A stretch of DNA of 32,000 nucleotides from an uncultured Chloroflexia bacterium (GTDB taxonomy: Bacteria > Chloroflexota > Anaerolineae > Anaerolineales > Anaerolineaceae), in assembly GCA_963704755.1 (NCBI GenBank), contig OY969938.1, forward strand, positions 3,360,001 to 3,392,000. The letters run 5' to 3'. The notes below the pieces were generated by a model. That model was given only the letters and a program-made list of their open reading frames with translations, had not been told where the DNA came from and did no database searches. Positions 829-25,329 of this stretch are shown piece by piece; position 1 is the first letter of the stretch; each line of letters begins with the position of its first letter. The position numbers and the translations under genes are program-made.

Positions 829-856
829 TTGATAATCGCGCTGTATGGCTTATAAT
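829..856 (+). promoter_or_regulatory. Candidate sigma70-type promoter for the methyltransferase operon (about 220-nt leader)
   Basis: TTGATA (829-834), a 16-nt spacer, then TATAAT (851-856). No credible ORF lies between it and 1084. Confidence 0.35.
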
Positions 857-1083: not shown

Positions 1084-3069
1084 TTGAATTCTACACGCCT
1101 ATCCCCACAATCTGAGTCCTCTGACGCCTCTGAGTATAAAGTTGTTTTTCAACCTTCCGGGCGCAGCGGCAAGATTCCGGACGGGATGACGCTGCGCGAA
1201 GCGGCGCAACGGCTGGGGGTTGGCATCGAGTCAACCTGCGGCGGCCAGGAAATTTGCGCCAAATGCCAGGTCATCATCGAAGAAGGCGAGTTCCCCAAGC
1301 ATGGCTTGATTTCCAGCCAAGATCACGTTACACCGCCTAACGAGCAAGAAAAACGCCTGGCGCGAATTAAGCACTTGCGCCCGGGCGTACGCCTGGCCTG
1401 TATTGCCCGGGTAACCGGTGACTTGCTGGTCAGCATTCCCGAGTACGCCCAGGCCCAAAAACAAATCGTGGTCAAATCTGCCGGCGAGCGAGTGATCCCA
1501 ATCGATCCGATCATCCGGACGCTGTTCGTCAAGTTACCGCCAGCCAGGATCGATGACCGGTCCGATCAGGAGCGCATCCTGGCCCTGGTGACCGAACGTT
1601 ATGGCCTGGAAGGGCTGGTTTTCGATTATCCGGCGCTGCAAGCCTTGCCGATAGCGGTCCGGGCCGGCAAGGGCGACCTGACCCTGACCGTCTGGGACGA
1701 ACGTTTCATTCTACGGGTACAACCCGGCCTGCACGACCGGCCGATCGGGTTGGCGGTCGATATTGGCTCGACCACTCTGGCCGCATACCTGTGCGACTTG
1801 CACAGCGGCGAGCTGCTGGCGACCACCTCGGCGATGAACCCACAGGTCTCCTTTGGCGATGACATCATGTCGCGTATTTCCTACGCCAACGAGGCCGAAA
1901 ATGGCCGCGACCAGCTCCAGCTTTCGGTCGTCCAGGCGATCAATGCGCTGGGTGAGCAGGCCGCATTCGAGGCCGGGGTGGAACCGGAGGATATCGTGGA
2001 TTGTACCCTGGTGGGCAACACAGTCATGCACCACCTGGTTTTGAACCTGGATCCCTCTTCGCTGGGTACTTTACCTTTTACCCCGGTGGCCAGCGGCCCG
2101 CTGGACCTGCGCGCGGCTTTCCTGGGGCTGCACTTCAACCCGGCGGCGCGGGTACACGTTTTACCGTTGGAAGCCGGGTATGTCGGCGCCGATAATGTCG
2201 CCGTGATCCTGGCCGAAGAGCCGCATCACCAGGACGAGATTACCCTGATCGTGGACGTAGGCACCAACGGCGAGATCGTATTGGGCAACCGGGAGCGGCT
2301 GCTGTGTACCTCCAGCCCGACCGGCCCGGCCTTCGAAGGGGCCCAGATTACGCATGGAATGCGCGCAGCGGAAGGGGCTATCGAACGGGTGCGGATCGAC
2401 TCGCTGACCCGCGAGGTGCGCTTTAAGGTCATTGGCAGCCAGAACTGGAGCGACGAGCCCTCCGACCGGGTGGCCCTGGCACGCGGTATTTGTGGGTCCG
2501 GCATCCTGGAAGCCGTGGCCGAGCTGTTCACAGCCGGGGTTCTGCGGCCGAATGGCCGCTTCGATCCCAAATGTAACTCAAACCGACTGGTCCGGCTGGA
2601 AAACGGCCAGCAGGCGTTTGTTCTGGCGCTGGCAGGCCAATCGGTTACCGGCCAGCCCATTCTGCTGACCCAATCGGACGTACGCGCCGTACAACTGGCC
2701 AAAGGGGCCCTGTACACCGGCGCGAAAATGCTCATGAATGAACTGGGTGTGGACCACGTTGAACAGATCATCCTGGCCGGGGCTTTTGGCAGCCTGATCG
2801 ACAAGCGGCGCGCCATGGTCATTGGCATGATCCCGGACTGCGACCTGAAGCGTGTCCACGCCGTGGGGAACGCCGCCGGTGACGGGGCCCGGATCGCCTT
2901 GCTCAACAAGGCGAAAAGAAAAGAGGCGGCCCAGGTGGCGTTGTGGACACAGCACATTACCACCCCGCTGGAGGGCGAATTCCAAAAGCTGTTTGTGGAA
3001 TCCCTGGCCTTTCCCCACGCTAAAGACCGCTTTCCTCACCTCGAGAACCCACCTGAACCTAATTCCTAA
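1084..3069 (+). CDS. Corrinoid reductive activator (RACo/AcsV/RamA-like, COG3894): N-terminal [2Fe-2S] ferredoxin domain plus ASKHA ATPase domain
   Basis: 661-aa ORF. The N-terminal cysteine cluster is 'STCGGQEICAKCQV...LACIARV'. ASKHA phosphate motifs 'VDIGSTTLAAYL' and 'VDVGTNGEIVLG' are present. The only in-frame start is TTG at 1084 with a weak RBS, so the start is uncertain. Confidence 0.85.
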   Translation: MNSTRLSPQSESSDASEYKVVFQPSGRSGKIPDGMTLREAAQRLGVGIESTCGGQEICAKCQVIIEEGEFPKHGLISSQDHVTPPNEQEKRLARIKHLRPGVRLACIARVTGDLLVSIPEYAQAQKQIVVKSAGERVIPIDPIIRTLFVKLPPARIDDRSDQERILALVTERYGLEGLVFDYPALQALPIAVRAGKGDLTLTVWDERFILRVQPGLHDRPIGLAVDIGSTTLAAYLCDLHSGELLATTSAMNPQVSFGDDIMSRISYANEAENGRDQLQLSVVQAINALGEQAAFEAGVEPEDIVDCTLVGNTVMHHLVLNLDPSSLGTLPFTPVASGPLDLRAAFLGLHFNPAARVHVLPLEAGYVGADNVAVILAEEPHHQDEITLIVDVGTNGEIVLGNRERLLCTSSPTGPAFEGAQITHGMRAAEGAIERVRIDSLTREVRFKVIGSQNWSDEPSDRVALARGICGSGILEAVAELFTAGVLRPNGRFDPKCNSNRLVRLENGQQAFVLALAGQSVTGQPILLTQSDVRAVQLAKGALYTGAKMLMNELGVDHVEQIILAGAFGSLIDKRRAMVIGMIPDCDLKRVHAVGNAAGDGARIALLNKAKRKEAAQVALWTQHITTPLEGEFQKLFVESLAFPHAKDRFPHLENPPEPNS

Positions 3070-3103
3070 ATATGGTAACTACTCAAGCCCTTATGATGAA
3101 ATT

Positions 3104-3158
3104 CCCTGAATTGAGATGTTTGCAGTGGCGAAGCCGCTGCAAACATCTCAATTCAGGG
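3104..3158. repeat. Hairpin (26-bp stem, one G-T pair, 3-nt loop), same family
   Basis: CCCTGAATTGAGATGTTTGCAGTGGC / gaa / GCCGCTGCAAACATCTCAATTCAGGG. Confidence 0.9.
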
Positions 3159-3221
3159 GTTCATACTCATTGGGTTGAGCAGCTACAAATGATGCAACTA
3201 TTCAGCCAAAGCAGAAGAAAA

Positions 3222-3274
3222 GATGGTTTTATTGTTTTTTGCGTGCATAGCACGCAAAAAACAATAAAACCATC
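3222..3274. repeat. Perfect hairpin (25-bp stem, 3-nt loop), same family
   Basis: GATGGTTTTATTGTTTTTTGCGTGC / ata / GCACGCAAAAAACAATAAAACCATC. Confidence 0.9.
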
Positions 3275-3379
3275 TCCCCCTTCTGGATCTGCCAAAGCAG
3301 TTACAAGATAATTGCGACGCCGGTCTTGGGGGGCGGCCGGTGCAATCTCGAAAATAATTCACCTAAGGAGAAAGCAAGC

Positions 3380-4768
3380 ATGCGAACGAACTGGCTAGTC
3401 GAGATCACCAAAAGAGCACAGACCGGCCCCTACATGAAAGAAGGCGATTTTGACTTGATGCTCACCAAGAAAATCCGTGAGCTGGTCAAGTCCTATGGCA
3501 TCAAGTGGGATGCGAATAACCTGGTTCCCGCCGATGACGACCTGGTCGACCGGGTCTTTCAGGCCGGCTTACAGCTTTTCTGCGAAGTGGGCGTGTATTG
3601 CCAGTCCACCGAGCGCCTGATCCGCTTCTCCCGCGAAGAGGTGCTGGACATCCTGGCCATGGCTCCGGCTGAAGTGAAGCTGGGCACGGGCAAAGACCAG
3701 GTAATCATGCACCACCGCAACGTGGAAGACCCACGCCGGCCGATCGTCCATTCCGGCCCGACCGGAACGCCAGCCAGCGAAAAATACCATCCGCTGATCC
3801 TGCTTTCCTGCGCGCAGGAGCCGCTGGTGGACTGCCTGGGCGCCGGGTCGGTTTCGACCTACCTGGGCGAGCAGATTATCCCCGGCTCTCCGCTGGAAAT
3901 CCTGGGTGCCCGCCGGGATGCCTCGGTAGCTCGTGAAGTCGTGCGCATGGCCGGCCGGCCGGGTATGCACATCAATGACGTGGCCGTCCCGTTGACCTGC
4001 GCCGGCAAGATGGCGGCCTACGACCCCGATTCTGGGCTGCGCCCTAGCGACGGCATCCTGGTCTCGCAGATGGTGGAGATGAAGACCGACTTCGACCAGC
4101 TTTCACGGGTCGCCTGGCTGAATAACGTCGGCGGGGTGCGGGTGGATTTGATGACGCCGCTCATCGGTGGGCTCGGCGGGCGCGCCGAAGGCACTGCGGT
4201 CGTCTCGGTCGCCGATCACCTGTTGGGTGTGGTGCTCTACGACGCCGACTATCACATGTTCTCGCTGACCCACATCAATTACGTCAATAACACTGAGCCG
4301 ATGGGCATCTGGATCCAGGCCGTAGTCGGCCAGGCCCTGGCGCGCAACACCCACATCGTCTGCCTGAACGATATCTACGTCCTCTCCGGCCCGGGTACCA
4401 AAGAGCTGCTCTACGAAGTGGCTGCCGGCGCGATCGTCGGCACGGTCTCCGGGTTCAATATGCAGGGCGCCGGTACCACCGGCGGCTTCAAGACCGACCA
4501 TACCACCGGCCTGGAAGCCCGCCTGATCGGCGAAGTCTCCCGCCAGACCCTGGGCTGGACCCGCCAGCAGGCCAGCGAAGTGATCCCCGAGATCCAGAAA
4601 CACTTCCTGGATACGCTCAAAGAGCCCAACCGCGGCCGCCCGTTCTACGAAGTGTACGACGTGGATCGCGTCGAGCCGACCGCCGAGTGGCTGGACCTGT
4701 ATTACCAGGTCAAGGAAGACCTGACCGGCCTGGGATTGAAATTCGACCTATCCAATAAAGGCAAGTAA
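3380..4768 (+). CDS. MtmB-family (monomethylamine methyltransferase-like) corrinoid-dependent methyltransferase, pyrrolysine-free
   Basis: 462 aa from the ATG at 3380, with RBS AAGGAG 8 nt upstream. Its length and several blocks match my recollection of Methanosarcina MtmB (about 458 aa): 'GPTGTP', 'MAGRPGM', 'TTGLEARLIGEVSR' and 'FYEVYDVDRVEPTAEW...LGL'. The frame is uninterrupted with no in-frame TAG. Confidence 0.8.
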   Translation: MRTNWLVEITKRAQTGPYMKEGDFDLMLTKKIRELVKSYGIKWDANNLVPADDDLVDRVFQAGLQLFCEVGVYCQSTERLIRFSREEVLDILAMAPAEVKLGTGKDQVIMHHRNVEDPRRPIVHSGPTGTPASEKYHPLILLSCAQEPLVDCLGAGSVSTYLGEQIIPGSPLEILGARRDASVAREVVRMAGRPGMHINDVAVPLTCAGKMAAYDPDSGLRPSDGILVSQMVEMKTDFDQLSRVAWLNNVGGVRVDLMTPLIGGLGGRAEGTAVVSVADHLLGVVLYDADYHMFSLTHINYVNNTEPMGIWIQAVVGQALARNTHIVCLNDIYVLSGPGTKELLYEVAAGAIVGTVSGFNMQGAGTTGGFKTDHTTGLEARLIGEVSRQTLGWTRQQASEVIPEIQKHFLDTLKEPNRGRPFYEVYDVDRVEPTAEWLDLYYQVKEDLTGLGLKFDLSNKGK

Positions 4769-4775
4769 GAAACTA

Positions 4776-4915
4776 TTAACCACGGCATGGAAGAGAGAAA
4801 AGAGAATAGAGAATAGAGAATAGTAAATTCGGATGGCAAGATCGCTTGTTGATAAGCTACTCTTTTCCAATCTCTAATCTCTAATCTCTCTTCATCTCCG
4901 TGTCTCCGTGGTTAG
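4776..4915. repeat. Long imperfect inverted repeat (about 45-bp arms) built on GAGAATAGAGA / TCTCTAATCTC units
   Basis: The left arm is TTAACCACGG..GAGAATAGAGAATAGAGAATAG. The right arm is CCAATCTCTAATCTCTAATCTCTC..CCGTGGTTAG. The outer AACCACGG/CCGTGGTT pairing is perfect, and the inner repeats pair apart from regular A-A mismatches. Confidence 0.7.
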
Positions 4916-4938
4916 AATTTTTTCTAAGGAGATTACCG

Positions 4939-5589
4939 ATGGCAGTACCCGAATCCATCCGCGAAAGATTGAGCACAGCCCTGAAGGAAGGCGAGGCCGA
5001 AGAAGCCGAGGCCATCGTCCTGGAAGCGCTGGAAACAAACGTAGGACCTCTGGAAATTATCCACGAAGTCATGATCCCGACCCTGGAAGTGGTGGGTGAA
5101 GAGTTCCAGCGCGGGGACATTTTCGTTCCCGAACTGCTGCTGACCGGTGAAGCGGCCGAAAAAGTATCCAAGCACCTGGAAAAAGCGATCGAAACCCAGG
5201 GCATCGCTTCGGTTTCGCCCGGCATGGTCGTGATCGGCACGGTCAAAGGCGACATTCACGATATCGGTAAGAATATCGTCGCCACCATGCTGCGCGCTAA
5301 CGGCTTCAAGGTCGTTGACCTGGGCCGCGACGTCACCCCGAGCGCTTTTGTCGAGGCTGCCCGGAATGACAAAGCCGACATTATCGGCATGGCTTCCTTA
5401 ATGACCACTACCCGCCCGGCGATTTTGAGCACCATCAATCTGTTCAAAGAACTCGGTTTGCGGGATCAATATAAGATCGTTGTGGGGGGTGGCTCGGTTA
5501 CCCGCGATTGGGCCGAGGCTTCAGGCGCCGACGGTTACGCTGAGGATGCAACATCCGCAGTGGAACTGTGCAAGAAACTGGCCGCCTGA
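4939..5589 (+). CDS. Corrinoid (cobalamin-binding) methyl-carrier protein, MtmC/MtbC/MttC/MtaC type
   Basis: 216 aa from the ATG at 4939, with AAGGAG 8 nt upstream. It has a helical B12 cap followed by a Rossmann B12 domain. The motifs are DxHxxG ('GDIHDIGKNIV'), 'MASLMTTT' and 'VVGGGS'. Confidence 0.9.
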   Translation: MAVPESIRERLSTALKEGEAEEAEAIVLEALETNVGPLEIIHEVMIPTLEVVGEEFQRGDIFVPELLLTGEAAEKVSKHLEKAIETQGIASVSPGMVVIGTVKGDIHDIGKNIVATMLRANGFKVVDLGRDVTPSAFVEAARNDKADIIGMASLMTTTRPAILSTINLFKELGLRDQYKIVVGGGSVTRDWAEASGADGYAEDATSAVELCKKLAA

Positions 5590-5617
5590 AGGGTAAATCG
5601 CACGCCAAAGGTGGAGA

Positions 5618-5647
5618 TGCCCGGGCGGGACAAATGCCACCCGGGCA
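5618..5647 (+). terminator. Weak candidate terminator hairpin after the corrinoid protein gene
   Basis: TGCCCGGG / 14-nt loop / CCCGGGCA. The T-rich tract (ATTATTTTTTCTCTT) starts only about 12 nt later, so this is not a textbook terminator. Confidence 0.3.
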
Positions 5648-5825
5648 GAACCCAAAAATTATTTTTTCTCTTCGGTAAGCGCAAGAAAACTATCCGGCAA
5701 GGGAACAAAATTCTCTCAACGGCCGGGATAGTTATGAACAAAGGAGGCTCATACCAAAATTTCTGTAGTGTTTTTTTTCGGTTTTCCACTCGTTAATAAC
5801 CAAAACCTCATGGAGGAGTAAGTTC

Positions 5826-6839
5826 ATGAAAGCCCGTAAGTTTGTTATATTATTTTCCGTTTTGATGGTCGTATCTATCTTGATGGCTGCCTGCGGCAGC
5901 GCTCAGGCGGTGCCTACTGCCACTTCTGCGCCGAAAGAAAGTATCGCGGTGGTCATGATTGGCCCCATGGATGACAATTCCTGGAACGAAGTCGCCTACA
6001 ACGCGCTCAATTCGCTCAAGAGCGAGGGCGTGGACGTGGCTTATGCAGAAAACATCTCTACCGATGACGCTGCGCGTGTGCTGCGGGAATATGCCGGACA
6101 GGGATATAACGTGGTAGTAGCCCATACGTTCAGTTTCCAGGACGCCGTTTTCCAGGTGGCCAAGGAATACCCAAACCTGGACTTTGCCTGGCCGGGGGGC
6201 ATGGACAAGACCGATACCAACGTGGCCGATTACGACCAGCCTTTCTACCAGGCGGCTTACCCCATTGGTGTGCTGGCTGCTTACATGAGCAAGAGCGGCA
6301 AGCTGGGCGCGCTGTACGGGTTCGATATCCCCGTGTGCCATTCGATGGGTGAGGCTTTCCTGGCAGGCGCCAAGACCGTCAACCCGGACGCACAACTGGT
6401 TGTGACCGAGGTAGGCGATTGGGACGATGTCGCCAAGGCCAAGGAAGCTGCACTGGCTCAGGCGGACGCCGGTGTGGATTTCTGGTTGAACTGCGGTGAA
6501 GGGCCGGCCCTGGGCTCGATCGAAGCAGCCAAAGAACGCGGCGGTTACGTCACCGGGTACGTCGGCGATATGAGCGAGAACGGCCCCGATGTTGTCCTGG
6601 TCAACCTGATGTGGCAGCTCGAGCCGCTCTTCCGCCAGATGCTTGCCGACGCCAAGTCCGGCGACTTCGCCAATAAATATTATCAGTACGGTATCGCTGA
6701 CGACGGCGTGGGTATCAAATACAATGATGCGCTCAAAGCCCAAATCCCGGCCGATGCATTGGCCGCGGTGGACCAGTCCATTGCCGATATCAAATCCGGC
6801 AAGGTAACTGTGCCGTTTGTGCCGTCTGCGGATCAGTAA
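5826..6839 (+). CDS. BMP-family (PnrA/Med/TmpC-like) ABC transporter substrate-binding lipoprotein
   Basis: Lipobox 'LMAAC'. 'IAVVMIGPMDDNSWNEVAYNAL' matches the BMP-family N-terminal block. The RBS is GGAGGAG. Confidence 0.9.
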   Translation: MKARKFVILFSVLMVVSILMAACGSAQAVPTATSAPKESIAVVMIGPMDDNSWNEVAYNALNSLKSEGVDVAYAENISTDDAARVLREYAGQGYNVVVAHTFSFQDAVFQVAKEYPNLDFAWPGGMDKTDTNVADYDQPFYQAAYPIGVLAAYMSKSGKLGALYGFDIPVCHSMGEAFLAGAKTVNPDAQLVVTEVGDWDDVAKAKEAALAQADAGVDFWLNCGEGPALGSIEAAKERGGYVTGYVGDMSENGPDVVLVNLMWQLEPLFRQMLADAKSGDFANKYYQYGIADDGVGIKYNDALKAQIPADALAAVDQSIADIKSGKVTVPFVPSADQ

Positions 6840-6877
6840 TGTTCTCTGTAAGAAACAAGTTTATTTTCATCAATAAT

Positions 6878-6903
6878 TCTCCCGCCCCTTATCGGGCGGG
6901 AGA
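6878..6903 (+). terminator. GC hairpin after the SBP gene (10-bp stem) with no U-tract
   Basis: TCTCCCGCCC / cttatc / GGGCGGGAGA, followed by an A-run rather than a T-run. Confidence 0.3.
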
Positions 6904-6909
6904 AAAAAA

Positions 6910-6960
6910 GGTTTTTGAGTGTTTGTGCGACACTTTGTGTCGCACAAACACTCAAAAACC
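6910..6960. repeat. Perfect hairpin (23-bp stem, 5-nt loop), same family
   Basis: GGTTTTTGAGTGTTTGTGCGACA / ctttg / TGTCGCACAAACACTCAAAAACC. Confidence 0.9.
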
Positions 6961-6965
6961 TGAAT

Positions 6966-7008
6966 CTCCCCTCTCCCCTTGTGGGAGAGGGGCCGGGGGA
7001 GAGGGGCT
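6966..7008. repeat. GC-rich 'GEG' palindromic element
   Basis: CCCCTCTCCC cttgt GGGAGAGGGG CCGGGGGAGAGGGG. Related copies lie at 10619-10711 and 30337-30491. Confidence 0.75.
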
Positions 7009-7011
7009 GGC

Positions 7012-8550
7012 ATGAACCCTAGCGATTCCCTCATCGTGCAGATGAAAGGCATCGTCAAGCGCTTCCCGGGGGTACTGGCCAACGCGGGCATCGATTTCGA
7101 CCTGCGCCGGGGTGAAATCCACGCCCTGTTGGGCGAGAACGGGGCCGGCAAGACCACCTTGATGAACATTCTCTACGGCTTATACCGGCCGGACGCCGGC
7201 GAGGTGCAGATCAACGGCCAGAAAGTGGACTTCCATTCGCCGTTGGATGCGATTGCCGCCGGATTGGGGATGGTCCACCAGCATTTTATGCTGGTGCACA
7301 CATTTACGGTGGCCGAAAACATTATTTTGGGCCAGAAGTCGCCCCGCGAGCCGATTTTGGAAGATTCGAAGGCCGTCCGCCGGCGTTTGATCGACCTTTC
7401 CAAACATTACGGGCTGGAGATCGACCCGGACGCGCCGGTCTGGGCCCTTTCGGTCGGCCAGCAGCAGCGTGTCGAAATTTTGAAGGCGCTCTACCGCGGC
7501 GCCCAGGTGCTGATCCTGGATGAGCCCACCGCGGTGCTCACTCCGCAGGAAGTGGGCGAATTATTATCCATCCTGCGGCGGCTGGTGAGCGAGGGCATGT
7601 CGGTGGTGTTCATCACCCACAAGCTGGACGAGATTCTGGCGGTGGGCGACCGGATCACCGTGCTGCGGGATGGCAAGGTGGTCGATACCGTCACCCCGGC
7701 CGAGGTGGACAAAGCTTCGCTGGCCTATCGCATGGTCGGGCGCGAGGTGCTGCTGCGGGTAAAGCGCACCCCATCTCAGGCAGGGGAAGTGCTGCTGCAA
7801 ATGCGAGGCCTGGAAGCCAACAACGAACGCGGCCTGCCGGCCCTACGTGGGCTGGACCTGGACGTCCGCGCCGGCGAGATATTGGGGATTGCCGGGGTGG
7901 ACGGCAACGGCCAGATGGAGCTGGAAGAGGTGATCGCCGGGCTGCGCAAGGCCACCCACGGCAGAGTGACCATCGCCGGCCAGGACGCGACTAACCAAAG
8001 CCCGCATTTCATCGGCGCCTGCGGGCTGGCCCACGTGCCCTCGGACCGCTACTCGATGGGCTTGCTGGCCGATTTCAGCGTGGCCGAGAATATGGTCTTG
8101 CAGCGTGTTAGTCAGGAGCCCTTTACCCGCCACGGCTGGTTGGATTGGAAAACGATCCGCACGGAGGCCGCCCGGCTGGTGCAGCGTTTCGACGTGCGCA
8201 CCCCCTCGGTGGAGACGCCGGCGGGCACGCTTTCGGGCGGCAACGCCCAAAAACTGGTCCTGGCGCGCGAACTGGCGCGTAACCCGCGCGTGCTGCTGGC
8301 TGCCCAACCCACCCGTGGGCTGGACGTCAGCGCCATCGAATACGTCCACCGCATGCTGATCGAGCAGCGCGATATGGGCATGGCCATCCTGTTGATTTCG
8401 ACCGAGCTGGAGGAGATTCTTGCCTTGAGCGATCGCATCGCCGTGATCTATGCCGGGAAAATTGTGGGGATCATCCCGGCCGGCCAGGCCGACCTGACCC
8501 GCCTGGGGCTGATGATGGCCGGAGCCGGGCTGGAGGAGGCCGCCGTATGA
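7012..8550 (+). CDS. ABC transporter ATP-binding protein with duplicated ATPase domains (BMP/sugar-type)
   Basis: Two Walker A/signature sets are present: 'GENGAGKTT...LSVGQQQRVEI...LILDEPT' and 'GVDGNGQ...LSGGNAQKLVLAR'. I chose the ATG at 7012 because the upstream GTG at 6979 lies inside the repeat element. Confidence 0.9.
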   Translation: MNPSDSLIVQMKGIVKRFPGVLANAGIDFDLRRGEIHALLGENGAGKTTLMNILYGLYRPDAGEVQINGQKVDFHSPLDAIAAGLGMVHQHFMLVHTFTVAENIILGQKSPREPILEDSKAVRRRLIDLSKHYGLEIDPDAPVWALSVGQQQRVEILKALYRGAQVLILDEPTAVLTPQEVGELLSILRRLVSEGMSVVFITHKLDEILAVGDRITVLRDGKVVDTVTPAEVDKASLAYRMVGREVLLRVKRTPSQAGEVLLQMRGLEANNERGLPALRGLDLDVRAGEILGIAGVDGNGQMELEEVIAGLRKATHGRVTIAGQDATNQSPHFIGACGLAHVPSDRYSMGLLADFSVAENMVLQRVSQEPFTRHGWLDWKTIRTEAARLVQRFDVRTPSVETPAGTLSGGNAQKLVLARELARNPRVLLAAQPTRGLDVSAIEYVHRMLIEQRDMGMAILLISTELEEILALSDRIAVIYAGKIVGIIPAGQADLTRLGLMMAGAGLEEAAV

Positions 8551-9614
8551 GCCAGGCTTCCGTATCGATCCCCAATGAATCCGCATCGCAGCGCCTGCCC
8601 GGCTGGCTGATCGGCCTGGCTGCCCCGGTAGCCGGGGCGCTGGTGGGCCTGTTGATTGGGGCCGTATTGATCGTGATCGCCGGGGCCGACCCGCTGCAAA
8701 CCTATGAGGTCATGCTGCGCGGCGCGTTCGGCGGCAAGCAGCAGCTCACCGAGACCATCCTCAAGACGGGGCCCTTATTGATGGTAGGGCTGGGTCTCAC
8801 CGCGGCTTTCCGTGCGCGGGTGTGGAACATCGGCGGCGAAGGCCAGTTCTACATGGGCGCGCTCTTCGGGGGCGTCATTGCCCTGGCTTTTCCGGATATG
8901 CCTTCCATTATCCTCCTGCCGCTCATGCTGCTGGCGGGTGCCCTGGGCGGCATGCTGTGGGCGCTGATCGCCGGTCTGCTCAAGGTACGCCGGGGGATGA
9001 ACGAGATCATCTCGACCCTGATGCTGAACTACATTGCGGTGCTGTTGATGCAGTACCTGGTGCGCGGGCCGCTGAACGACCCGAATGGCTATCTGCCGGT
9101 CTCGGCCCAATTCAGCGATAACGCCCGCCTGCCGACCCTGTTTTCATCGCGGATCCACGTCGGGATCATCCTGGTGATCCTGCTGGTGCCGGCGGTGTAC
9201 TTTTTGCTGTGGAAAACCCCACTGGGGTTCAAGCTGCGCGCGGTCGGGTCGAAAGCCAGCGTGGCCCGCTACGCCGGTATCCAGGTCGAGCGGGTAGTGC
9301 TGTTTGCGCTTTCGTTCAGCGGCGCGCTGGCCGGCCTGGCTGGGATCATCGAGGTCAGCACCCTGCACACCCGCCTGAAGAGCGATATCTCGGGTAATTA
9401 CGGCTTCAGCGGTATCCTGGTGGCCCTCTTGGGACGCATGCACCCGCTGGGGGTGACCTTTGCCTCGATCTTTTTTGCCGCGCTGACCATTGGGGCGCAG
9501 AGCATGCAAATCGTCTCGCATTTACAGCCCTCGCTGGCTGACGCGATCCAGGCTGTTATCGTCCTCTCCGTGCTGGGGGTGGATGCCCTGGCGCGTATGA
9601 AACTGGTGGATTGA
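8547..9614 (+). CDS. ABC transporter permease (BMP-type)
   Basis: 355-aa polytopic protein. Its ATG overlaps the upstream stop (ATGA), which indicates translational coupling. Confidence 0.9.
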   Translation: MSQASVSIPNESASQRLPGWLIGLAAPVAGALVGLLIGAVLIVIAGADPLQTYEVMLRGAFGGKQQLTETILKTGPLLMVGLGLTAAFRARVWNIGGEGQFYMGALFGGVIALAFPDMPSIILLPLMLLAGALGGMLWALIAGLLKVRRGMNEIISTLMLNYIAVLLMQYLVRGPLNDPNGYLPVSAQFSDNARLPTLFSSRIHVGIILVILLVPAVYFLLWKTPLGFKLRAVGSKASVARYAGIQVERVVLFALSFSGALAGLAGIIEVSTLHTRLKSDISGNYGFSGILVALLGRMHPLGVTFASIFFAALTIGAQSMQIVSHLQPSLADAIQAVIVLSVLGVDALARMKLVD

Positions 9615-9616
9615 AT

Positions 9617-10609
9617 ATGGATTGGAGTATTTTTCTCCAGTGGAGTTTCTTGATCGCGCTGGTCACAGCCGGTATCCGCCTGGCCATCCCGGTGCTGCTG
9701 GCCACCCTGGGTGAGATCATCACCGAGCGCTCAGGGGTGCTCAACCTGGGCATCGATGGAATTATGGCGGTGGGCGGGCTGTTCGGCTTTTGGGCGGCCT
9801 ACGCCCTGGAAAACGGACCGCTGGCCGGGGTGGGCGGTGAGTGGAGCGCCTGGATTGGCCTGCTGGCCGGCATGGTGGCCGGGGCGCTGATGGGGGTGTT
9901 GTTCGCGGCGCTTAGCATTACGCTCAAAGCCGACCAGGTGATTTGTGGGGTGACCCTGGTGGTGTTTGGCCAGGGCCTGTCTTCCTATTTATACCGGCAA
10001 TCCTTCAGCGCCATGACGGCGCGGGTCAACGGCATGCAGTCCCTGCCGATTCCCGGGTTGAGCCAGATCCCGGTGCTGGGCGAGATCCTGTTCGATCACG
10101 ACCCGACTGTCTACTTGACCGTAGGGCTGGTGCTTCTGGTCTGGTACCTGCTTTTCCGCACCACCTGGGGGCTGCGCATCCGCTCGGTGGGTGAAAACCC
10201 GGCCGCGGCCGAGACCTCGGGGATCAATGTGCAGCATACCCGCTGGGCGGCCACCTTGCTGGGCGCGGCCCTGGCCGGCCTGGGTGGGGCAGTGTTGACC
10301 GTGGTTCAATTGAAATTGTTCCGCGAGGGCATCACCGGTGGGCGCGGCTGGATCGCGGTGGCGCTGGTGATCTTCGCCCGCTGGCGGCCGGGCATGGCCC
10401 TGGGCGGAGCCATGCTGTTCGGCCTGGCCGACTCGCTCCAGTACCGCATCCAGGCCCTCAGCCAGAGTGACAGCGCTATTGGCGCGATCCCATACGAATT
10501 TCTGCTGATGCTGCCTTATCTGTTGACCCTGGTGGCCTTATTGATGCGCGGCAAACGCAACGACTCCCCGGCGGCCCTGGGGACGCCGTATAACAAAGGC
10601 GCGCGCTGA
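9617..10609 (+). CDS. ABC transporter permease (BMP-type), second subunit
   Basis: About 330-aa polytopic protein. The ATG at 9617 lies 2 nt after the upstream stop, and an in-frame TTG at 9611 is an alternative start. Confidence 0.9.
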   Translation: MDWSIFLQWSFLIALVTAGIRLAIPVLLATLGEIITERSGVLNLGIDGIMAVGGLFGFWAAYALENGPLAGVGGEWSAWIGLLAGMVAGALMGVLFAALSITLKADQVICGVTLVVFGQGLSSYLYRQSFSAMTARVNGMQSLPIPGLSQIPVLGEILFDHDPTVYLTVGLVLLVWYLLFRTTWGLRIRSVGENPAAAETSGINVQHTRWAATLLGAALAGLGGAVLTVVQLKLFREGITGGRGWIAVALVIFARWRPGMALGGAMLFGLADSLQYRIQALSQSDSAIGAIPYEFLLMLPYLLTLVALLMRGKRNDSPAALGTPYNKGAR

Positions 10610-10618
10610 AGAGGAAGA

Positions 10619-10711
10619 GCCCTCATCCCCCGGCCCCTTCCCCCGCTCTGGGGGAAGGGGAGCGTTCGAAAAGCCCCTCTCCCGCTTCTGGGAGAGGGGT
10701 TGGGGTGAGGG
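10619..10711. repeat. Compound GC-rich 'GEG' palindromic element (two hairpins inside an outer stem)
   Basis: CCCCTTCCCCC gctct GGGGGAAGGGG and CCCCTCTCCC gcttct GGGAGAGGGG, enclosed by GCCCTCATCCCC...GGGGTGAGGGC. Confidence 0.8.
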
Positions 10712-10792
10712 CCTGAGCACGTTGGCGAAATCAACCATGCGTTTCCAAAGTCCTGTGGGATAATAGAAATCGAGGGACTGAAACCCGCCACG

Positions 10793-11262
10793 TGACCTGA
10801 CACCCGACACCGATCCCCTGGCATATACGAAGATGTTGGGTCAGGGCATTGCCCTGACTGGCCGATGCCCAGACCTATGCCAGTGTTTTGATCGAGCCCC
10901 GACCCAACCTACGCCTGACACCTGACACTCGACACTTCTCCCCCTACACAAACGAAGATGTTGGGTCAGGGCAGCGCCCGGATTGGCCAGTGCCAAGACT
11001 CACACCAATGTTTCAAACGAGCCCCGACCCAACCTACGCCTGACACCTGACACTCGACACTTCTCCCCCGACACAAACGAAGATGTTGGGTCAGGGCAGT
11101 GTCATGACTGGCCAATACCCCGACCCAGGCCAATGTTTCGATCGAGCCCCGACCCAACCTACACCTGACACTTGACACCTGACACTAATCCCCTACCCAA
11201 CCTACACCTGACACTTGACACCTGACACTAATCCCCTACCCAACCAACGACTACTCACTAAT
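10793..11262 (+). repeat. Tandem array of 125-bp units x about 3, then 43-bp units x about 2.3, all rich in TGACACY heptads
   Basis: Unit starts (CGAAGATGTTGGGTCAGGGCA) lie at 10828, 10953 and 11078, giving an exact 125-bp period. ACCCAACCTACACCTGACACTTGACACCTGACACTAATCCCCT starts at 11152, 11195 and 11238, giving a 43-bp period. Confidence 0.9.
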
Positions 11263-11302
11263 CTCTATTCTCTAATCTCTTTCCCCCCCGAAAGGCTCTC
11301 CC

Positions 11303-12187
11303 ATGACCTCTTCCTTCCTTGATCTTCTCGCCGAAAAAAAGACCCTGGTTGCCGACGGCGCGACCGGAACAAATTTGCAGCAGCGCGGATTGCCGGTGGG
11401 CAAATCCGGTGAGTATTTTGTGCTGGAAAACCCGGATGCGATCGTTGGCCTGGTGAGCGACTTTGTCCTGGCCGGCGCTGACCTGGTGCTGACCTGCACG
11501 TTCGGCGCCAGCCGGGTCCACCTGACCGCGATGGAGATGGGCGACCGTACCGAAGAGATCAACCGCACGGCCGTGGCCCTGGCGCGCAAAGCCGTGGCCG
11601 GCAGCGCGACCCTGGTGGCCGGTTCGATTGGGCCGACCGGCGAAATGCTCCAGCCGTTTGGGCCGCTCTCGATCGAGGATGCCCAGGCCACCTTTGCCGA
11701 GCAGGCCGGCCTGCTGGCCGAGGCCGGCGTGGACCTGTTGGTGGCCGAGACTATGTTCGACCTGAACGAGGCGGTCGCCGCGGTTAAAGGCGTACGTTCG
11801 GTTTGTGACCTGCCGCTGGTGTGCTCGTTCAGTTACGACCGGGGCACCAAGACGATGATGGGGGTCAGCCCGACCAAGGCCGCCAAAGCCCTGGAGGGGC
11901 TGGACGTGAACCTGATCGGGATCAACTGCGGGCGCAGCCTGGAGGATAACCTGGCTGCATTAAAGGAACTGCGCCAGGTCACTGACCTGCCGATCTGGTT
12001 CAAGCCCAACGCCGGGCTGCCGGCTACCGATAAGATGGGCGAGTTGTATTATGAATTGACCCCGGATGGCATGGCCGCCCCGGTGCCGGAATGGATCGAG
12101 TCCGGCGCGCGCGTGATCGGCGGGTGCTGCGGTACCAGTCCCGCGCATTTGAAAGCCGTCGCCCAGGCGGTGAGGAAGTGTTCTTAG
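11303..12187 (+). CDS. Homocysteine S-methyltransferase-domain protein (stand-alone homolog of the MetH Hcy-binding module, Pfam S-methyl_trans type)
   Basis: 294 aa. 'LVADGATGTNLQQRGL' and 'AGADLVLTCTFGAS' are present. The Zn-ligand cysteines lie in 'GINCG' and 'GGCCGTSPAHL'. Confidence 0.85.
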   Translation: MTSSFLDLLAEKKTLVADGATGTNLQQRGLPVGKSGEYFVLENPDAIVGLVSDFVLAGADLVLTCTFGASRVHLTAMEMGDRTEEINRTAVALARKAVAGSATLVAGSIGPTGEMLQPFGPLSIEDAQATFAEQAGLLAEAGVDLLVAETMFDLNEAVAAVKGVRSVCDLPLVCSFSYDRGTKTMMGVSPTKAAKALEGLDVNLIGINCGRSLEDNLAALKELRQVTDLPIWFKPNAGLPATDKMGELYYELTPDGMAAPVPEWIESGARVIGGCCGTSPAHLKAVAQAVRKCS

Positions 12188-12242: not shown

Positions 12243-12310
12243 CGACGCGTGACGTGAGTTATTGTGATTGTGTGGGGTACGGTGGCAACGCACCCTTCGT
12301 GCCGGGCTGA

Positions 12311-12700
12311 TGTTTGGGTAGGGTAGCTCGGGTTTCCAACCCGAGGGAACGCCGGCCGGGCGCATTCCCGGCTTTGAAAGCCGGGCTACGCTACCCATTC
12401 ATCCGATCCGGCCAGGTGTTTGGGAATGGTAGCTCGGGTTTCCAACCCGAGGGAACGCCGGCCAAACACATTCCCGGCTTTGAAAGCCGGGCTACGCTAC
12501 CGGAGCGCTCGATACTGCAAGACCCTTGGGAAGGGTAGCTCGGGTTTCCAACCCGAGGGAACGCCGGCCAAACACATTCCCGGCTTTCAAAGCCGGGCTA
12601 CGCTACCGGAGCGCTTGATACTGCAAGGCCCTTGGAAATGGTAACTAGGGTTTCCAACCCGAGGGAACACCGGCCGGGTAGAATCCTGGCGATGGAATCA
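12311..12700 (+). repeat. Tandem array of 106-bp units x about 3.6, each carrying two 7-nt-loop hairpins
   Basis: GGTAGCTCGGG starts at 12322, 12428, 12534 and 12640 (degenerate), giving an exact 106-bp period. The core is GGTAGC-CTCGGGtttccaaCCCGAG-GGAACGCCGGCC..CATT-CCCGGCtttgaaaGCCGGG-CTACGCTACC. Confidence 0.9.
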
Positions 12701-16366: not shown

Positions 16367-18400
16367 TCAGCCGTTGACCGGCAGAGGTGCGGATCCGCTG
16401 CCCTCTGGACTGGCGCCAGCCTCGTCGGGGGTGTCCGGAACGAAATCGGGCAGCTCGGTCTCGACGTTGCGGATGCGCGGATGGAGATAGACCAATCCGT
16501 TGACGGCCAGCAGGACCAGGGCGGCGATTACAAAGATCAACCCGATCCCGCGGCCCGGCCCGGTGCCCAAAAAGTGGCCCAGAAAGGTGTTGCTCAGCAG
16601 GCCGCCCGGCTGCATGGCCGGTTCGAAAAATTTATCGGCCAGCGGGCCGGCCAGCAGGTAGGCCAGGGGCATCATCGCGCGCGAGATAACGGTGCGGATG
16701 GCAAAGACCCTGCCCTGGATTTCAGGGGCGATTTTTGCCTGGCTGATGGCCATGCTGGCGCCGGAAGCCACCGGGATCGGCATTACCAGAATGGCCATAC
16801 CCACACCCAGGGCGATCCAACTCTGGCTCATTCCGGCGAATGCCAGCCCCAGGGCAGCCAGCGAAAGCGACAGGACAATCCCGCGGATTTTCTTTTTCGG
16901 CCCGCCCCAGGCGCTCAAGACCAGGCTGCCACCCAGAAAGCCGACCCCCATAATCGCCTGGATGCTGCCCAGGATTGAGGCGGAGGCAAAACTGAGCACC
17001 AGCGGACCGACCAGCACGGTGGCAAAATTCAACAGAAAGTTCACGCCGCTGGAATAAAGGGTCAATCCCAGCAGGCCACTGCGGGCGCGCAGGTAATTCC
17101 AGCCGAAAACCAGGTCGTTCCAGACCTGGCCCTTCCTGGGCTGGCGGTCCTCGCTGGAAAGCAGCGGTTGGGGAATTTTGATGACCAGTAACGCGCCGAC
17201 GGCGAAAAAGAAGGTGACGAAATCGATGGTCATGACGCCGTTCAGGCCGATCAGCACGAACAGCACCCCGGCCAGGGCAGGTGAGATCAGCGTCTGGATC
17301 GCCTGGCTGAGCTGGCTCAGGCCGCTTGCGCGGGCCAGGTCCTTTTTAGGTACCAGCATGGTCACCGAGGCGGTAAAAGCCGGCTCCTGGAAGGCGGTGA
17401 AAACCCCACCGGCCAGGGCGATCAGATAAATGTTCCAGACCTGCAGATGGCCGAAAGTGACGATCAGCAGGGCGCTCAAGGTGACCAGTGCGCTGCCGGT
17501 ATCGGCCAGGATCATCATCCAGCGCCGGTTCCACCGGTCCGCCAGGGAGCCGGCCAGCGGAGAAAGCAGGATAGGCGGCAGCGCATTGAACAAGACCGTG
17601 ATGGCAAAGGGAGTTGCTTGCTCGGTCTGCTGGAAGATCCACACGGCCAGGGCAAAATCGGTCAGGCCTGAGCCGACCAGGGAAATCAGCTCACCGAACC
17701 AGATAACGGTAAACGAGCGCATGTTCTTGGGTTGGGTAAAAGTTGTTGCCATCTGATCGTACCTATAAAGAGGTTTTTCATCCTTTGAGGGGCTGTAATA
17801 AAAACTAGGGTATAAAAAGGCGGCCAGACTGAAAAGCTGTACGCCCTCGCGGTTATGATCTGGTTGACTTTCTGTTTGCTCGAATTCTTCCAGCAGATCG
17901 AACAGTTTTTGCTCGAACCGGCGGACTTGCTCTTCGGTCAGGTAAGCCTGGACGCGATTAATGAGCATTTTGCGTGGAACCTTTTGCTCGCCGCTTTCCA
18001 GGCTGCTGTAACGCGCGTGTAAGCTGCGGTTGATATCCTCGCGGGTGGTTTCCAGCAAGGCACGGACGACTTCGTCGATGCCTTCGTATTCGCCGTTTTC
18101 GCTGAAACGCAATAGATCGTGGTCGATTTCCAGGTCCCTGGCAATGACGCTGTAGATTTTTTCTACCAGGTTGCCCACCAGCCTGGTCTCGACCACTTTG
18201 ACCAGCCCGTGTTTTTCCAGCAAGTTGAAGTGGTAGTATAGCTTGCTGGAGGCCAGGCCTAATTTCTCCGCCACTGCGTTTACGGTTTGGGGTTCTTGGG
18301 CCAGGATCTCGTATATTTGCGAGCGGGTCGGGTCGGCGAAAACCCGCAGGGTATCCAGGTCGTGGATAATAAAAGAATCTTTCGGTTGGTTATTTTTCAT
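16367..18400 (-). CDS. In-frame fusion of an ArsR-type winged-HTH domain (about 215 aa) with an MFS transporter (about 460 aa)
   Basis: A single 677-aa ORF. The N-terminal part 'LRVFADPTRSQIYEILAQEPQTVNAVAEKLGLASSKLYYHFNLLEKHGLV' is ArsR/SmtB-like. From 'MATTFTQPKNMRSFTVIWFGELISLVGSG...LADRWNRR' onward it is a 12-TM MFS of the EntS/MFS_3 type. There is no stop and no obvious SD at the junction. Confidence 0.8.
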   Translation of the reverse strand: MKNNQPKDSFIIHDLDTLRVFADPTRSQIYEILAQEPQTVNAVAEKLGLASSKLYYHFNLLEKHGLVKVVETRLVGNLVEKIYSVIARDLEIDHDLLRFSENGEYEGIDEVVRALLETTREDINRSLHARYSSLESGEQKVPRKMLINRVQAYLTEEQVRRFEQKLFDLLEEFEQTESQPDHNREGVQLFSLAAFLYPSFYYSPSKDEKPLYRYDQMATTFTQPKNMRSFTVIWFGELISLVGSGLTDFALAVWIFQQTEQATPFAITVLFNALPPILLSPLAGSLADRWNRRWMMILADTGSALVTLSALLIVTFGHLQVWNIYLIALAGGVFTAFQEPAFTASVTMLVPKKDLARASGLSQLSQAIQTLISPALAGVLFVLIGLNGVMTIDFVTFFFAVGALLVIKIPQPLLSSEDRQPRKGQVWNDLVFGWNYLRARSGLLGLTLYSSGVNFLLNFATVLVGPLVLSFASASILGSIQAIMGVGFLGGSLVLSAWGGPKKKIRGIVLSLSLAALGLAFAGMSQSWIALGVGMAILVMPIPVASGASMAISQAKIAPEIQGRVFAIRTVISRAMMPLAYLLAGPLADKFFEPAMQPGGLLSNTFLGHFLGTGPGRGIGLIFVIAALVLLAVNGLVYLHPRIRNVETELPDFVPDTPDEAGASPEGSGSAPLPVNG

Positions 18401-18540: not shown

Positions 18541-18557
18541 CACAACAGTAGACATAA

Positions 18558-18655
18558 ACCAAACGGGGAGCCTGGTGAGCCAGGCTGAGAGGAGGACCTG
18601 AGTCCTCGACCCGCTGAACCTGATCCGGGTAATGCCGGCGGAGGGAAGACGTGTG
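18558..18655 (+). promoter_or_regulatory. TPP (THI-box) riboswitch
   Basis: ACGGGGAGCCTGGTGAGCCAGGCTGAGAGGAGGACCTGAGTCCTCGACCCGCTGAACCTGATCCGGGTAATGCCGGCGGAGGGAAGACGT contains the conserved CUGAGA, ACCC..UGAACCUGAUC.GG.UAAUGCC.GCG.AGGGA blocks. Downstream, CCCTCCGCC can pair with either GGCGGAGGG or the SD AAGGAGG (18676-18682). Confidence 0.88.
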
Positions 18656-18692
18656 TTGTTGTTAAACCCTCCGCCAAGGAGGTTTTTTTATT

Positions 18693-19361
18693 ATGGCTGC
18701 AAAACGAGCATTTGTTTTCGTCAACGGCGAACTGGCCGATCCACCCGCCTTGCAGGCCCAGATCCAACCGGGCGACACGCTGGTGGCTGCCGATGGGGGA
18801 CTCCGCCACATGCAATCCATAGGGGCCAGGCCGGACCTAGTTATCGGTGATCTCGATTCGGCCGATCCGCAATTATTGGCCGAATTGCAGGCCCAGGGGG
18901 TGCGCATCGAGCGCTACCCGCGTGAAAAAGACGAGACCGACCTGGAGCTGGCCCTGCTGGAGCTTTCCAAACAGGGCTTCGACGAAATCCGGGTTATAGC
19001 GGCCCTGGGCGGCCGCCTGGACCAGACCCTGGCCAACCTGTACCTGCTGGAAATGGACGGGCTGGAAGACGTCGATGTGCGTATAGATGATGGGCACGAA
19101 GAAATCCTCATCATCCATGGCGCGGCCGTGATCGCGGGCCGGCCGGGCGATACGTTGTCCCTGCTGGCGATGGACGGCTGTACCACCGGCATCCTCACCC
19201 AGGGTTTGAAGTATCCGCTCAACGACAGCACCCTGTGTCCCAGCCGTACGCGGGGCATCAGCAACGAGATGTTAACCGAGCGGGCAGAAGTCCATGTTGG
19301 CTCTGGCCGGCTGTTGTGCATCCATACCCGCCAACCCCAGGTTGTAGCTGAAGAAAGCTGA
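18693..19361 (+). CDS. thiN: Thiamine pyrophosphokinase (thiamine diphosphokinase)
   Basis: 222 aa. 'FVFVNGEL...LVAADGG...PDLVIGDLDS...EKDETDLELAL' matches the TPK catalytic domain, and a C-terminal thiamine-binding beta domain follows. The gene lies directly behind the TPP riboswitch. Confidence 0.85.
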   Translation: MAAKRAFVFVNGELADPPALQAQIQPGDTLVAADGGLRHMQSIGARPDLVIGDLDSADPQLLAELQAQGVRIERYPREKDETDLELALLELSKQGFDEIRVIAALGGRLDQTLANLYLLEMDGLEDVDVRIDDGHEEILIIHGAAVIAGRPGDTLSLLAMDGCTTGILTQGLKYPLNDSTLCPSRTRGISNEMLTERAEVHVGSGRLLCIHTRQPQVVAEES

Positions 19362-19450
19362 TCGCTGCCTTCATTCGCGAGTTTGAGTGGCTAAGAGAAG
19401 GTTTGTTTTCCCCTTTGTTCCGAAGGGTAGTTAATCATCAGGAGAAGAGA

Positions 19451-20581: not shown

Positions 20582-20583
20582 GT

Positions 20584-23686: not shown

Positions 23687-23767
23687 CGGGGTGGTTTTAA
23701 AAAGTGTTTGATGTTTTTCGAGAGCAAAGCTCTCGAAAAACATCAAACACTTTTTAAAACCACCCCG
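23687..23767. repeat. Perfect hairpin with a 39-bp stem and 3-nt loop, the longest family member
   Basis: CGGGGTGGTTTTAAAAAGTGTTTGATGTTTTTCGAGAGC / aaa / GCTCTCGAAAAACATCAAACACTTTTTAAAACCACCCCG, verified base by base. Confidence 0.95.
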
Positions 23768-25241: not shown

Positions 25242-25329
25242 GGTTCTCAGCCATGAGACTGAGCAGTGACGCCGCTCTTACGCGAACCAAAATCTGTTGC
25301 AGTTCTTCCTTTTTTACGGAGCTTATTCA

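Follow-up and report, generated by a model that had tools for sequence, protein, structure and literature searches.

What does a relative of the monomethylamine methyltransferase MtmB do in a bacterium of the Chloroflexota when it lacks pyrrolysine (Pyl), the residue that is held necessary for MtmB to activate monomethylamine? The question is raised by a stretch of 32,000 nucleotides (nt) of contig OY969938.1 from an uncultured Chloroflexia bacterium (assembly GCA_963704755.1, positions 3,360,001 to 3,392,000), referred to below as the window. An earlier reading made from the letters alone (the sequence-only reading) had singled out three consecutive plus-strand genes there, encoding a RACo-type activator, a protein of 462 amino acids (aa) with the look of MtmB, and a corrinoid protein with a DxHxxG motif. 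We found that the 462-aa protein is a Pyl-free member of the MtmB family, and that the conserved gene order reaches well beyond these three genes. The explanation that fits best overall, to which we give a probability of about 0.5, is that the genes form an operon which would import a methylated small molecule and move its methyl group via a protein-bound corrinoid.

The substrate:corrinoid methyltransferase (MT1) and its key codon are located as follows.

3380..4768, plus strand: MT1, Pyl-free MtmB-family substrate:corrinoid methyltransferase, 462 aa (Pfam, PDB matches, fold)
3974..3976, plus strand: AAT codon of Asn199, opposite Pyl202 of Methanosarcina barkeri MtmB (phmmer alignment)

The open reading frame (ORF) is open already from a TTG at 3326, and its start is the ATG at 3380, which has an AAGGAGA Shine-Dalgarno sequence ahead of it and agrees with the N-termini of homologues. 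The Pfam MtmB model (PF05369) matched MT1 with 357 bits (gathering cut-off 25, E 1.7e-106) over profile positions 5-450 of 450, and a phmmer search of the PDB returned M. barkeri MtmB1 (1L2Q, 1NTH and 1TV2, E about 1e-74), with an identity of about 32-34%. The AlphaFold2 model of MT1 (pLDDT 91.4, pTM 0.92) was matched by Foldseek to the TIM-barrel fold of MtmB (1NTH) with a TM of 0.94 and a root-mean-square deviation of 2.0 Å, compared with a TM of only about 0.5 for MttB and MtgB. These matches to MtmB are beyond chance, and MT1 belongs to the MtmB family by both sequence and fold, without the Pyl that defines the monomethylamine enzyme. The reading frame contains no in-frame TAG and stops with TAA, and no tRNA-Pyl was detected by ARAGORN within the window. 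The sequence-only reading had thus been right in proposing a bacterial MT1 that uses the MtmB fold without UAG-encoded Pyl.

In the phmmer alignment, which is gap-free for tens of residues on both sides of Pyl202, the MtmB segment MAGRPGMGV-X202-GPETSL is matched by MAGRPGMHI-N199-DVAVPL in MT1, and Asn199, previously placed at or next to the Pyl position, lies directly opposite Pyl202. Among the 120 closest homologues, Asn occupies this position 86 times and Ser 27 times, the clade motif being GRPGMHI(N/S)D, and the residues on either side (His197 and Asp200) were invariant in a 40-sequence alignment of the clade; over the wider MtmB family the Pyl202-aligned column is variable and mostly hydrophobic. 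Because Asn and Ser alternate within the clade, Asn199 is not a fixed catalytic residue, and a role as conserved catalytic substitute for Pyl was ruled out; judged from the alignment, it probably lines the pocket rather than replacing Pyl in catalysis. The positions of MtmB Glu229 and Glu259, which Hao et al. (2002, 2004) reportedly found to touch the Pyl ring, align with Leu227 and Leu257, both invariant in the MT1 clade.

The family to which MT1 belongs is large. Searching a library clustered at 50% identity gave 1,011 MtmB-family clusters at E ≤0.001 and 244 at ≤1e-30, with most of the proteins being full-length (about 455-470 aa). MT1 is at most 44% identical to any of these clusters beyond its own, which consists of proteins from Chloroflexota-type, importer-linked loci, and its top 120 homologues, at an identity of at least 63%, were almost exclusively from Chloroflexota. 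A recent study (Kashyap et al., Front Microbiol March 2026, PMC13044021) described the non-Pyl MtmB homologue MtqB from Methanococcoides methylutens Q3c, for which choline and tetramethylammonium serve as methyl donors to cob(I)alamin and monomethylamine does so weakly, and presented an MtmB-family tree of 1,061 sequences, mostly of unknown function. The sequence-only statement that no non-Pyl member of this family had a substrate assigned is overtaken by this study, and by analogy MT1 probably works like MtqB, as a Pyl-free MT1. In our neighbour-joining tree the MT1 clade stands apart from the group nearest to the Pyl-containing MtmB, where MtqB is placed in that paper (PMC13044021); the comparison of MtqB (ACT9XH_RS04775) with the clade draws on its description and published tree position. 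The representative P0271, which lies near MtmB1, has no corrinoid gene adjoining it in its genomic context. A non-Pyl protein of the MtmB superfamily, strongly induced by dichloromethane, was detected by proteomics in 'Candidatus Formimonas warabiya', without a function being assigned there, and three further candidates for characterised relatives, CdmB (chloromethane) and MecE and MecC of the mec cassette, were rejected as members of the UroD superfamily rather than the MtmB family.

The MT1 gene is part of an eight-gene unit (1084-12187), which comprises the RACo activase, MT1, the corrinoid protein, four genes of an ATP-binding cassette (ABC) importer and a homocysteine-binding protein, the last being a candidate for the acceptor methyltransferase (MT2). 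The other genes of the unit, and the repeats within it, are the following.

1084..3069, plus strand: RACo/AcsV-type reductive activator of corrinoid proteins, 661 aa (Pfam domains)
4900..5589, plus strand: cognate corrinoid protein (Pfam B12-binding_2, PF02607, and B12-binding, PF02310)
5826..6839, plus strand: BMP/PnrA-family substrate-binding lipoprotein of the ABC importer (Pfam Bmp, E 4.3e-49)
6979..8550, plus strand: importer ATPase with two ABC_tran domains (Pfam, conserved synteny)
8547..9614, plus strand: importer permease 1, BPD_transp_2, start overlapping the ATPase stop (Pfam, synteny)
9611..10609, plus strand: importer permease 2, BPD_transp_2, start overlapping the permease 1 stop (Pfam, synteny)
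10795..11232, no strand assigned: tandem repeats, 125-nt period, about 3.5 copies, in the spacer between importer and MT2 genes (repeat scan)
11303..12187, plus strand: candidate MT2, stand-alone homocysteine-binding module of the MetH N-terminal / MtgE type, 294 aa (PF02574)

The activase combines a [2Fe-2S] ferredoxin domain at its N-terminus with an ASKHA ATPase behind it, as shown by its Pfam matches (Fer2, RACo_linker, Raco_middle and RACo_C_ter, with E down to 1.2e-89), and its Cys52, Cys58, Cys61 and Cys106 match the plant-type [2Fe-2S] pattern; the best NCBIfam model was AcsV, with 388 bits under a cut-off of 800 bits. The corrinoid protein consists of a B12-binding cap and a Rossmann B12-binding domain, has D118-I-H-D-I-G123 as its DxHxxG motif (nt 5251-5268) and reached 184 bits with TIGR02370 (cut-off 215); its true start is probably the ATG at 4939, given the AAGGAGA ahead of it. 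Pfam therefore agreed with all three ORFs of the original cassette, while its description as complete did not stand, as 1084-5589 contains no MT2 and the conserved unit reaches 12187.

We collected 35 related loci (labelled L001 and onwards) and tabulated synteny for the first 30, using tblastn and ORF clustering. There is good evidence from gene content that 1084-12187 represents one functional unit, since the gene order is kept in the two closest loci (L007 and L008, with MT1 85% identical to that of the window) while the genes outside are unrelated. The order in these two loci is RACo, MT1, corrinoid protein, Bmp, ATPase, two permeases and PF02574, with an extra Rieske oxygenase gene ahead of PF02574 in L007. 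About 20 of the 27 distinct loci had the full set of MT1, the corrinoid protein, Bmp, the ATPase and both permeases, and the remaining seven are short contigs; the corrinoid gene adjoins MT1 in all related loci in the synteny table, while the activase gene is upstream of MT1, in the same position, in 12 of them. Even in L035, where MT1 is 44% identical, a permease of the same family is located next door. All related loci derive from Chloroflexota metagenome-assembled genomes (MAGs; Anaerolineales and Caldilineaceae), save for one bin labelled Chromatiaceae. Sequence and fold thus establish which families the proteins belong to, that Pyl is absent and that the gene order is conserved, and we consider the family assignments, the loss of Pyl and the operon structure to be very probably correct when taken together.

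A conserved protein of 200-229 aa was also found in related cassettes (L001 9259-9861; L004 19231-19920; L010, L015 and L023) and is absent from the window; it matched the MetH activation domain (PF02965) only below threshold (E 6e-4), and may be an accessory factor in corrinoid handling.

Where would the methyl group go? The 294-aa candidate MT2 matched Pfam S-methyl_trans (PF02574) with E 7.4e-72, and its best PDB match was the homocysteine (Hcy) domain of Thermotoga maritima MetH (1Q7M, E 9e-47), with other methionine synthases next, compared with 1.5e-23 for MmuM and about 1e-16 for BHMT. Its Cys209, Cys275 and Cys276 align with the MetH zinc ligands in INC and GGCCG. The best NCBIfam models, each under its cut-off, were PRK08645 and PRK07534 (betaine-homocysteine S-methyltransferase; 248 bits, cut-off 338), the latter of which we take to represent the Sinorhizobium meliloti Bhmt type. 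In Ruegeria and Phaeobacter, a stand-alone pfam02574 protein, MtgE, was recently reported to pair with the corrinoid protein MtgC and to supply the homocysteine module of a methionine synthase that is split and corrinoid-dependent, the corrinoid protein being shared with a glycine betaine MT1, and the predicted Bhmt of S. meliloti was reinterpreted as an MtgE homologue (Mausz et al., PNAS 2025, PMC12478193). In the window, L007 and L008 alike, the PF02574 gene comes after the importer, with the outer flanks unrelated across all three, and the spacer between importer and PF02574 is only 61 nt long in L008, the closest relative. No pterin-binding protein (Pterin_bind, pfam00809) was found among the ORFs of at least 150 aa in the 32 kb, tblastn of the window with a Pterin_bind query was equally empty, and the window contains no MtbA-type (URO-D family) methyltransferase gene. 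From synteny and homology, it is rather probable that methyl-Co(III) would be unloaded onto homocysteine in the source organism.

The alternative that survives best concerns this last step. The PF02574 protein would then not be the MT2, but an S-adenosylmethionine (SAM)/S-methylmethionine:homocysteine methyltransferase, or the Hcy module of a separate split methionine synthase which shares the corrinoid protein, and the methyl group would pass to tetrahydrofolate via a pterin-binding methyltransferase encoded elsewhere. In most related loci where an MT2 can be recognised it is Pterin_bind, accompanied by MTHFR or not, and not PF02574; PF02574 co-occurs in just three loci, which form one sub-clade, and this counts against the explanation preferred here. 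The more distant loci have a pterin-binding MT2 (PRK07535, 282 bits, cut-off 259) in place of PF02574, and because of this the downstream acceptor module appears to be interchangeable between loci. In Ruegeria the glycine betaine methyl group goes to tetrahydrofolate via MtgD, with MtgE serving methionine synthesis (PMC12478193). The sub-cut-off NCBIfam matches of the PF02574 protein also favour this alternative, as do the 694 nt of tandem repeats which set its gene off from the importer in the window, so that co-transcription is not assured. It is nevertheless unlikely, as three loci whose flanks are unrelated all have PF02574 following the last importer gene, as the match to the MetH Hcy domain is far better than that to MmuM-type proteins, and as the 32 kb has no Pterin_bind genes.

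Retaining homocysteine as the preferred acceptor, the operon could work in four steps. The BMP/PnrA-type binding protein, together with the ATPase and two permeases, would take up the substrate, after which the Pyl-free MtmB-fold enzyme would hold it in the TIM-barrel cleft and offer its N-methyl group to the Co(I) of the corrinoid, giving CH3-Co(III). The MetH-like homocysteine-binding protein would then use its Zn-thiolate site to hand the methyl group over to homocysteine, yielding methionine and restoring Co(I), and, whenever accidental oxidation had produced Co(II), the RACo-type activase would reduce it again by means of its [2Fe-2S] cluster and ATP. We infer the direction of methyl flow and the role of MT2 from synteny, from known three-component systems and from split methionine synthases.

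What the substrate might be is suggested by the importer and by the neighbours of orthologous cassettes. The nearest solved relatives of the binding protein (phmmer, E about 1e-28) were 7X0R, 3S99 and AtzT (6PI5), of which Brucella 3S99 has adenine modelled in its site and AtzT binds guanine with a Kd of 110 nM. The stacking aromatic residues of AtzT (Tyr45 and Trp194) tentatively correspond to Trp53 and Trp199 of the binding protein, a mapping made at about 28% identity and therefore of uncertain register. Amidohydrolases of the 8-oxoguanine deaminase family (NF006055, above the curated cut-off) adjoin the cassette in L001, L010, L012 and L022, and in L033, where MT1 is 58% identical, the gene of an NF005557-family deaminase overlaps the MT1 gene by 4 bp. 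Xanthine-dehydrogenase-type molybdenum (Mo) enzymes follow the importer in L004, L023, L018, L022 and L024 (best model pucD, under its cut-off), an inosine monophosphate (IMP) dehydrogenase comes directly after the importer in L019 and is found nearby in L016, and a phosphoribosyltransferase is located nearby in L009. Rieske oxygenases are encoded in or beside the cassette in L001, L004, L007, L016 and L030, and the best matches of those of L007 and L001 among solved structures were the methylxanthine N-demethylases NdmB/NdmA and the saxitoxin hydroxylases SxtT/SxtDIOX. Beside the MT1 orthologue, fifteen loci (e.g. L004, 8558-9985) have another, divergent MtmB paralogue that comes with a corrinoid protein of its own, an arrangement which fits a substrate bearing several methyl groups; in this paralogue the Pyl column is occupied by Gly within the motif RPGLGIGC, and identity to the MT1 of the window, the only one there, is about 34%. 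Because the neighbours of the orthologues and the relatives of the binding protein point there, we tentatively propose a purine-like heterocycle with an N-methyl group as the substrate, for instance a methylguanine or methylxanthine, and not free monomethylamine. The suspicion of a substrate other than free monomethylamine, already voiced in the sequence-only reading, is strengthened by the importer linkage and by the purine-type genes beside the relatives.

Several points weigh against a purine-like substrate. There are no purine-catabolic neighbours in the window itself, as those listed above are located in orthologous loci at 58-85% identity. Some of the polar guanine contacts of AtzT (Glu165, Asn218 and Asn220) correspond to Val170, Cys223 and Glu225 of the binding protein, and because these contacts appear to be replaced, the comparison suggests a ligand that is a flat heterocycle other than plain guanine or adenine. 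NadA/NadC-like neighbours, identified by eye from their sequences, are present in five loci, and these, together with a possible nicotinate-dehydrogenase-like nature of the Mo enzymes, would allow a methylated pyridine such as trigonelline as substrate. Xanthines carry N-methyl groups that resemble amides and are unactivated, and these would have to be activated without Pyl, while MtqB shows that the MtmB fold can accept simple quaternary amines. Our literature search yielded no relevant paper that connects MtmB homologues with purines, BMP transporters or Chloroflexota. A preprint (bioRxiv 10.64898/2026.01.06.697959) reports that N-methyl carbon of caffeine is converted anaerobically to methane, by unknown enzymes, with enrichment of an Anaerolineae MAG; its bearing on the MT1 clade is circumstantial only. 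In its boldest form, the proposal would make the MT1 clade the first cobalamin-dependent, O2-independent N-demethylase for methylated purines (e.g. 7-methylguanine or a methylxanthine), working Pyl-free with the MtmB fold on a heteroaromatic N-methyl group and, in the source organism, passing the methyl group directly to homocysteine, which on the present gene contexts we regard as doubtful.

It is improbable that MT1 is instead a quaternary-amine methyltransferase of the MtqB type, acting on choline, tetramethylammonium or a similar compound, with the purine-like context being coincidental. MtqB, the sole characterised non-Pyl MtmB, does take choline and tetramethylammonium (PMC13044021), a permanently charged nitrogen requires no Pyl-type activation, and Leu227 and Leu257 at the positions of Glu229 and Glu259 would suit a hydrophobic or cation-pi pocket. 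However, the importer has a BMP/PnrA-type binding protein and not a betaine/choline-type one or a BCCT carrier, and in the related loci it is purine-type genes that lie nearby (for deaminases, xanthine-dehydrogenase-type enzymes, Ndm-like oxygenases and IMP dehydrogenase), genes for choline or betaine being absent. MT1 is also no more than 44% identical to the other clusters, and its clade is separate from the reported tree position of MtqB.

There is little chance that MT1 is a true monomethylamine:corrinoid methyltransferase without Pyl, as its database names have it ('monomethylamine:corrinoid methyltransferase' and 'methylamine--corrinoid protein Co-methyltransferase'), or, as a variant, that it acts on methylamine or an alkylamine freed by neighbouring amidohydrolases from N-alkylamino heterocycles, as amidohydrolases of the TRZ/ATZ and deaminase groups can do and as the overlapping gene of L033 would allow. 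The small monomethylamine activity of MtqB (PMC13044021) is consistent with this, but MtmB needs Pyl for monomethylamine where the MT1 clade has Asn or Ser, the database names are automatic transfers from the Pfam/KEGG family, an importer with a BMP-type binding protein would hardly be needed for free methylamine, and the window contains no amidohydrolase.

Returning to the import and corrinoid-dependent demethylation of an N-methylated compound, the proposed system resembles four known ones in part. It shares with M. barkeri MtmB (EC 2.1.1.248) the same full-length Pfam match, the TIM-barrel, an adjoining corrinoid protein and the GRPGM strand with the key residue. It differs in having Asn199 (Ser in a quarter of the clade) for Pyl202 and invariant Leu for Glu229 and Glu259, and in being bacterial and linked to an ABC importer, with an acceptor other than coenzyme M via MtbA. 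In the breakdown of purine alkaloids, NdmABCDE takes off the N-methyl groups before xanthine dehydrogenase acts. The likeness to NdmABCDE of Pseudomonas putida CBB5 (6ICK, 6ICL) consists in the Ndm-like Rieske genes within several orthologous cassettes, whereas demethylation by NdmABCDE is oxidative, depends on O2 and yields formaldehyde, in contrast to a corrinoid transfer which would keep the methyl group, and the window itself has no Ndm-like gene.

The two remaining systems are corrinoid-dependent. MtgBCDE of Ruegeria pomeroyi and Phaeobacter inhibens (PMC12478193, PMC5764234) likewise has a separate MT1, a corrinoid protein, a pfam02574 module and a RamA-like activase, and there a single corrinoid protein is shared between the methyl group of an imported N-methyl compound and methionine synthesis. 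Its MT1, however, is of the MttB family (pfam06253) where that of the window is PF05369, the pterin-binding MtgD is essential there and absent from the window, and mtgE is usually located elsewhere, whereas the homocysteine module ends the operon here. MtqB/MtqC again combines a non-Pyl MtmB member with a corrinoid protein, and shows that the fold works Pyl-free beyond monomethylamine (PMC13044021). MtqB is archaeal, feeds coenzyme M via MtbA/MtqA and uses aliphatic quaternary amines (PMC13044021), in contrast to the bacterial clade of the window with its BMP/PnrA-linked genes, the purine-type genes of its relatives and its homocysteine- or pterin-binding MT2.

Three further non-coding features of the operon and its upstream region were recorded.

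829..856, plus strand: promoter-like site TTGATA-16-TATAAT, candidate operon promoter (consensus scan 11/12, pattern only)
3221..3275, no strand assigned: perfect hairpin with a 26-bp stem, in the activase-MT1 spacer (hairpin scan)
6909..6961, no strand assigned: perfect hairpin with a 25-bp stem, in the spacer between binding-protein and ATPase genes (hairpin scan)

The promoter-like site lies about 230 nt ahead of the first gene. No convincing gene was found upstream of the operon in 1-1083, where a 226-aa ORF (35-715) had no Pfam match, and no purine, cobalamin or SAM riboswitch was detected upstream of the operon at the gathering threshold or at E ≤1. The related loci have a TetR or GntR/UTRA regulator upstream, while the cassette of the window is without an adjoining dedicated regulator. 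The hairpin at 6909-6961 may process or stabilise the mRNA. It is one of six perfect intergenic hairpins (537-589, 676-712, 3221-3275, 6909-6961, 23687-23767 and 28514-28565), with stems of 17-39 bp and loops of 3-6 nt, two of which are located within the operon, and which gave spurious microRNA-like Rfam matches; they may represent intercistronic stabilisers or terminators, or a genome-wide family of palindromic repeats. A second tandem array (12299-12697, 106-nt period, 4 copies) lies on the other side of the PF02574 gene, which is thus flanked by two different arrays. The tRNA-SeC called by ARAGORN at 12426-12520 on the minus strand is inside this 106-nt repeat and was discarded as a probable false positive or tRNA-like repeat unit, and a neighbouring repeat unit (12321-12396, minus strand) gave an Rfam tRNA-Sec score of 24.5 bits against a gathering score of 47, with no selenoprotein context seen.

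Elsewhere in the window, a thiamine pyrophosphate (TPP) riboswitch was detected above its gathering score (18554-18663, plus strand, 66.8 bits), followed by genes for thiamin pyrophosphokinase, a binding protein and a fused permease (18693-19361, 19403-20581 and 20584-22299), so that 18554-22299 looks like an ordinary operon for thiamine uptake and activation. A 677-aa ORF on the minus strand (16367-18400) has an N-terminal ArsR-type HTH (HTH_20, HTH_5) fused to a full MFS transporter, an unusual fusion of regulator and transporter, and a plus-strand gene (25297-28377) encodes a STAND-type protein of 1026 aa with an NB-ARC ATPase domain and many TPR repeats.

The combination of an MtmB-family MT1 with a BMP-type importer and a terminal homocysteine module has not been described before. 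The non-Pyl MtmB homologues form a large family with a function known for MtqB alone, and the self-contained operon of this clade makes the role of such a homologue testable, with its neighbours pointing to N-methylated purine-like heterocycles. The name 'monomethylamine:corrinoid methyltransferase' is probably wrong for these Chloroflexota proteins, and metagenomic inferences of methylamine use based on that name are unsafe. If the proposed function is correct, corrinoid methyl transfer would reach from aliphatic amines to the N-methyl groups of nucleobase-type compounds, and microbes would be able to demethylate methylpurines and caffeine-type compounds without O2, which would also provide a candidate enzyme for anaerobic N-demethylation of caffeine in sediments (bioRxiv 10.64898/2026.01.06.697959). 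It would also be the second independent case, after MtgBCDE, of methyl salvage wired into methionine synthesis, with a salvaged methylpurine serving as folate-independent methyl donor for methionine.

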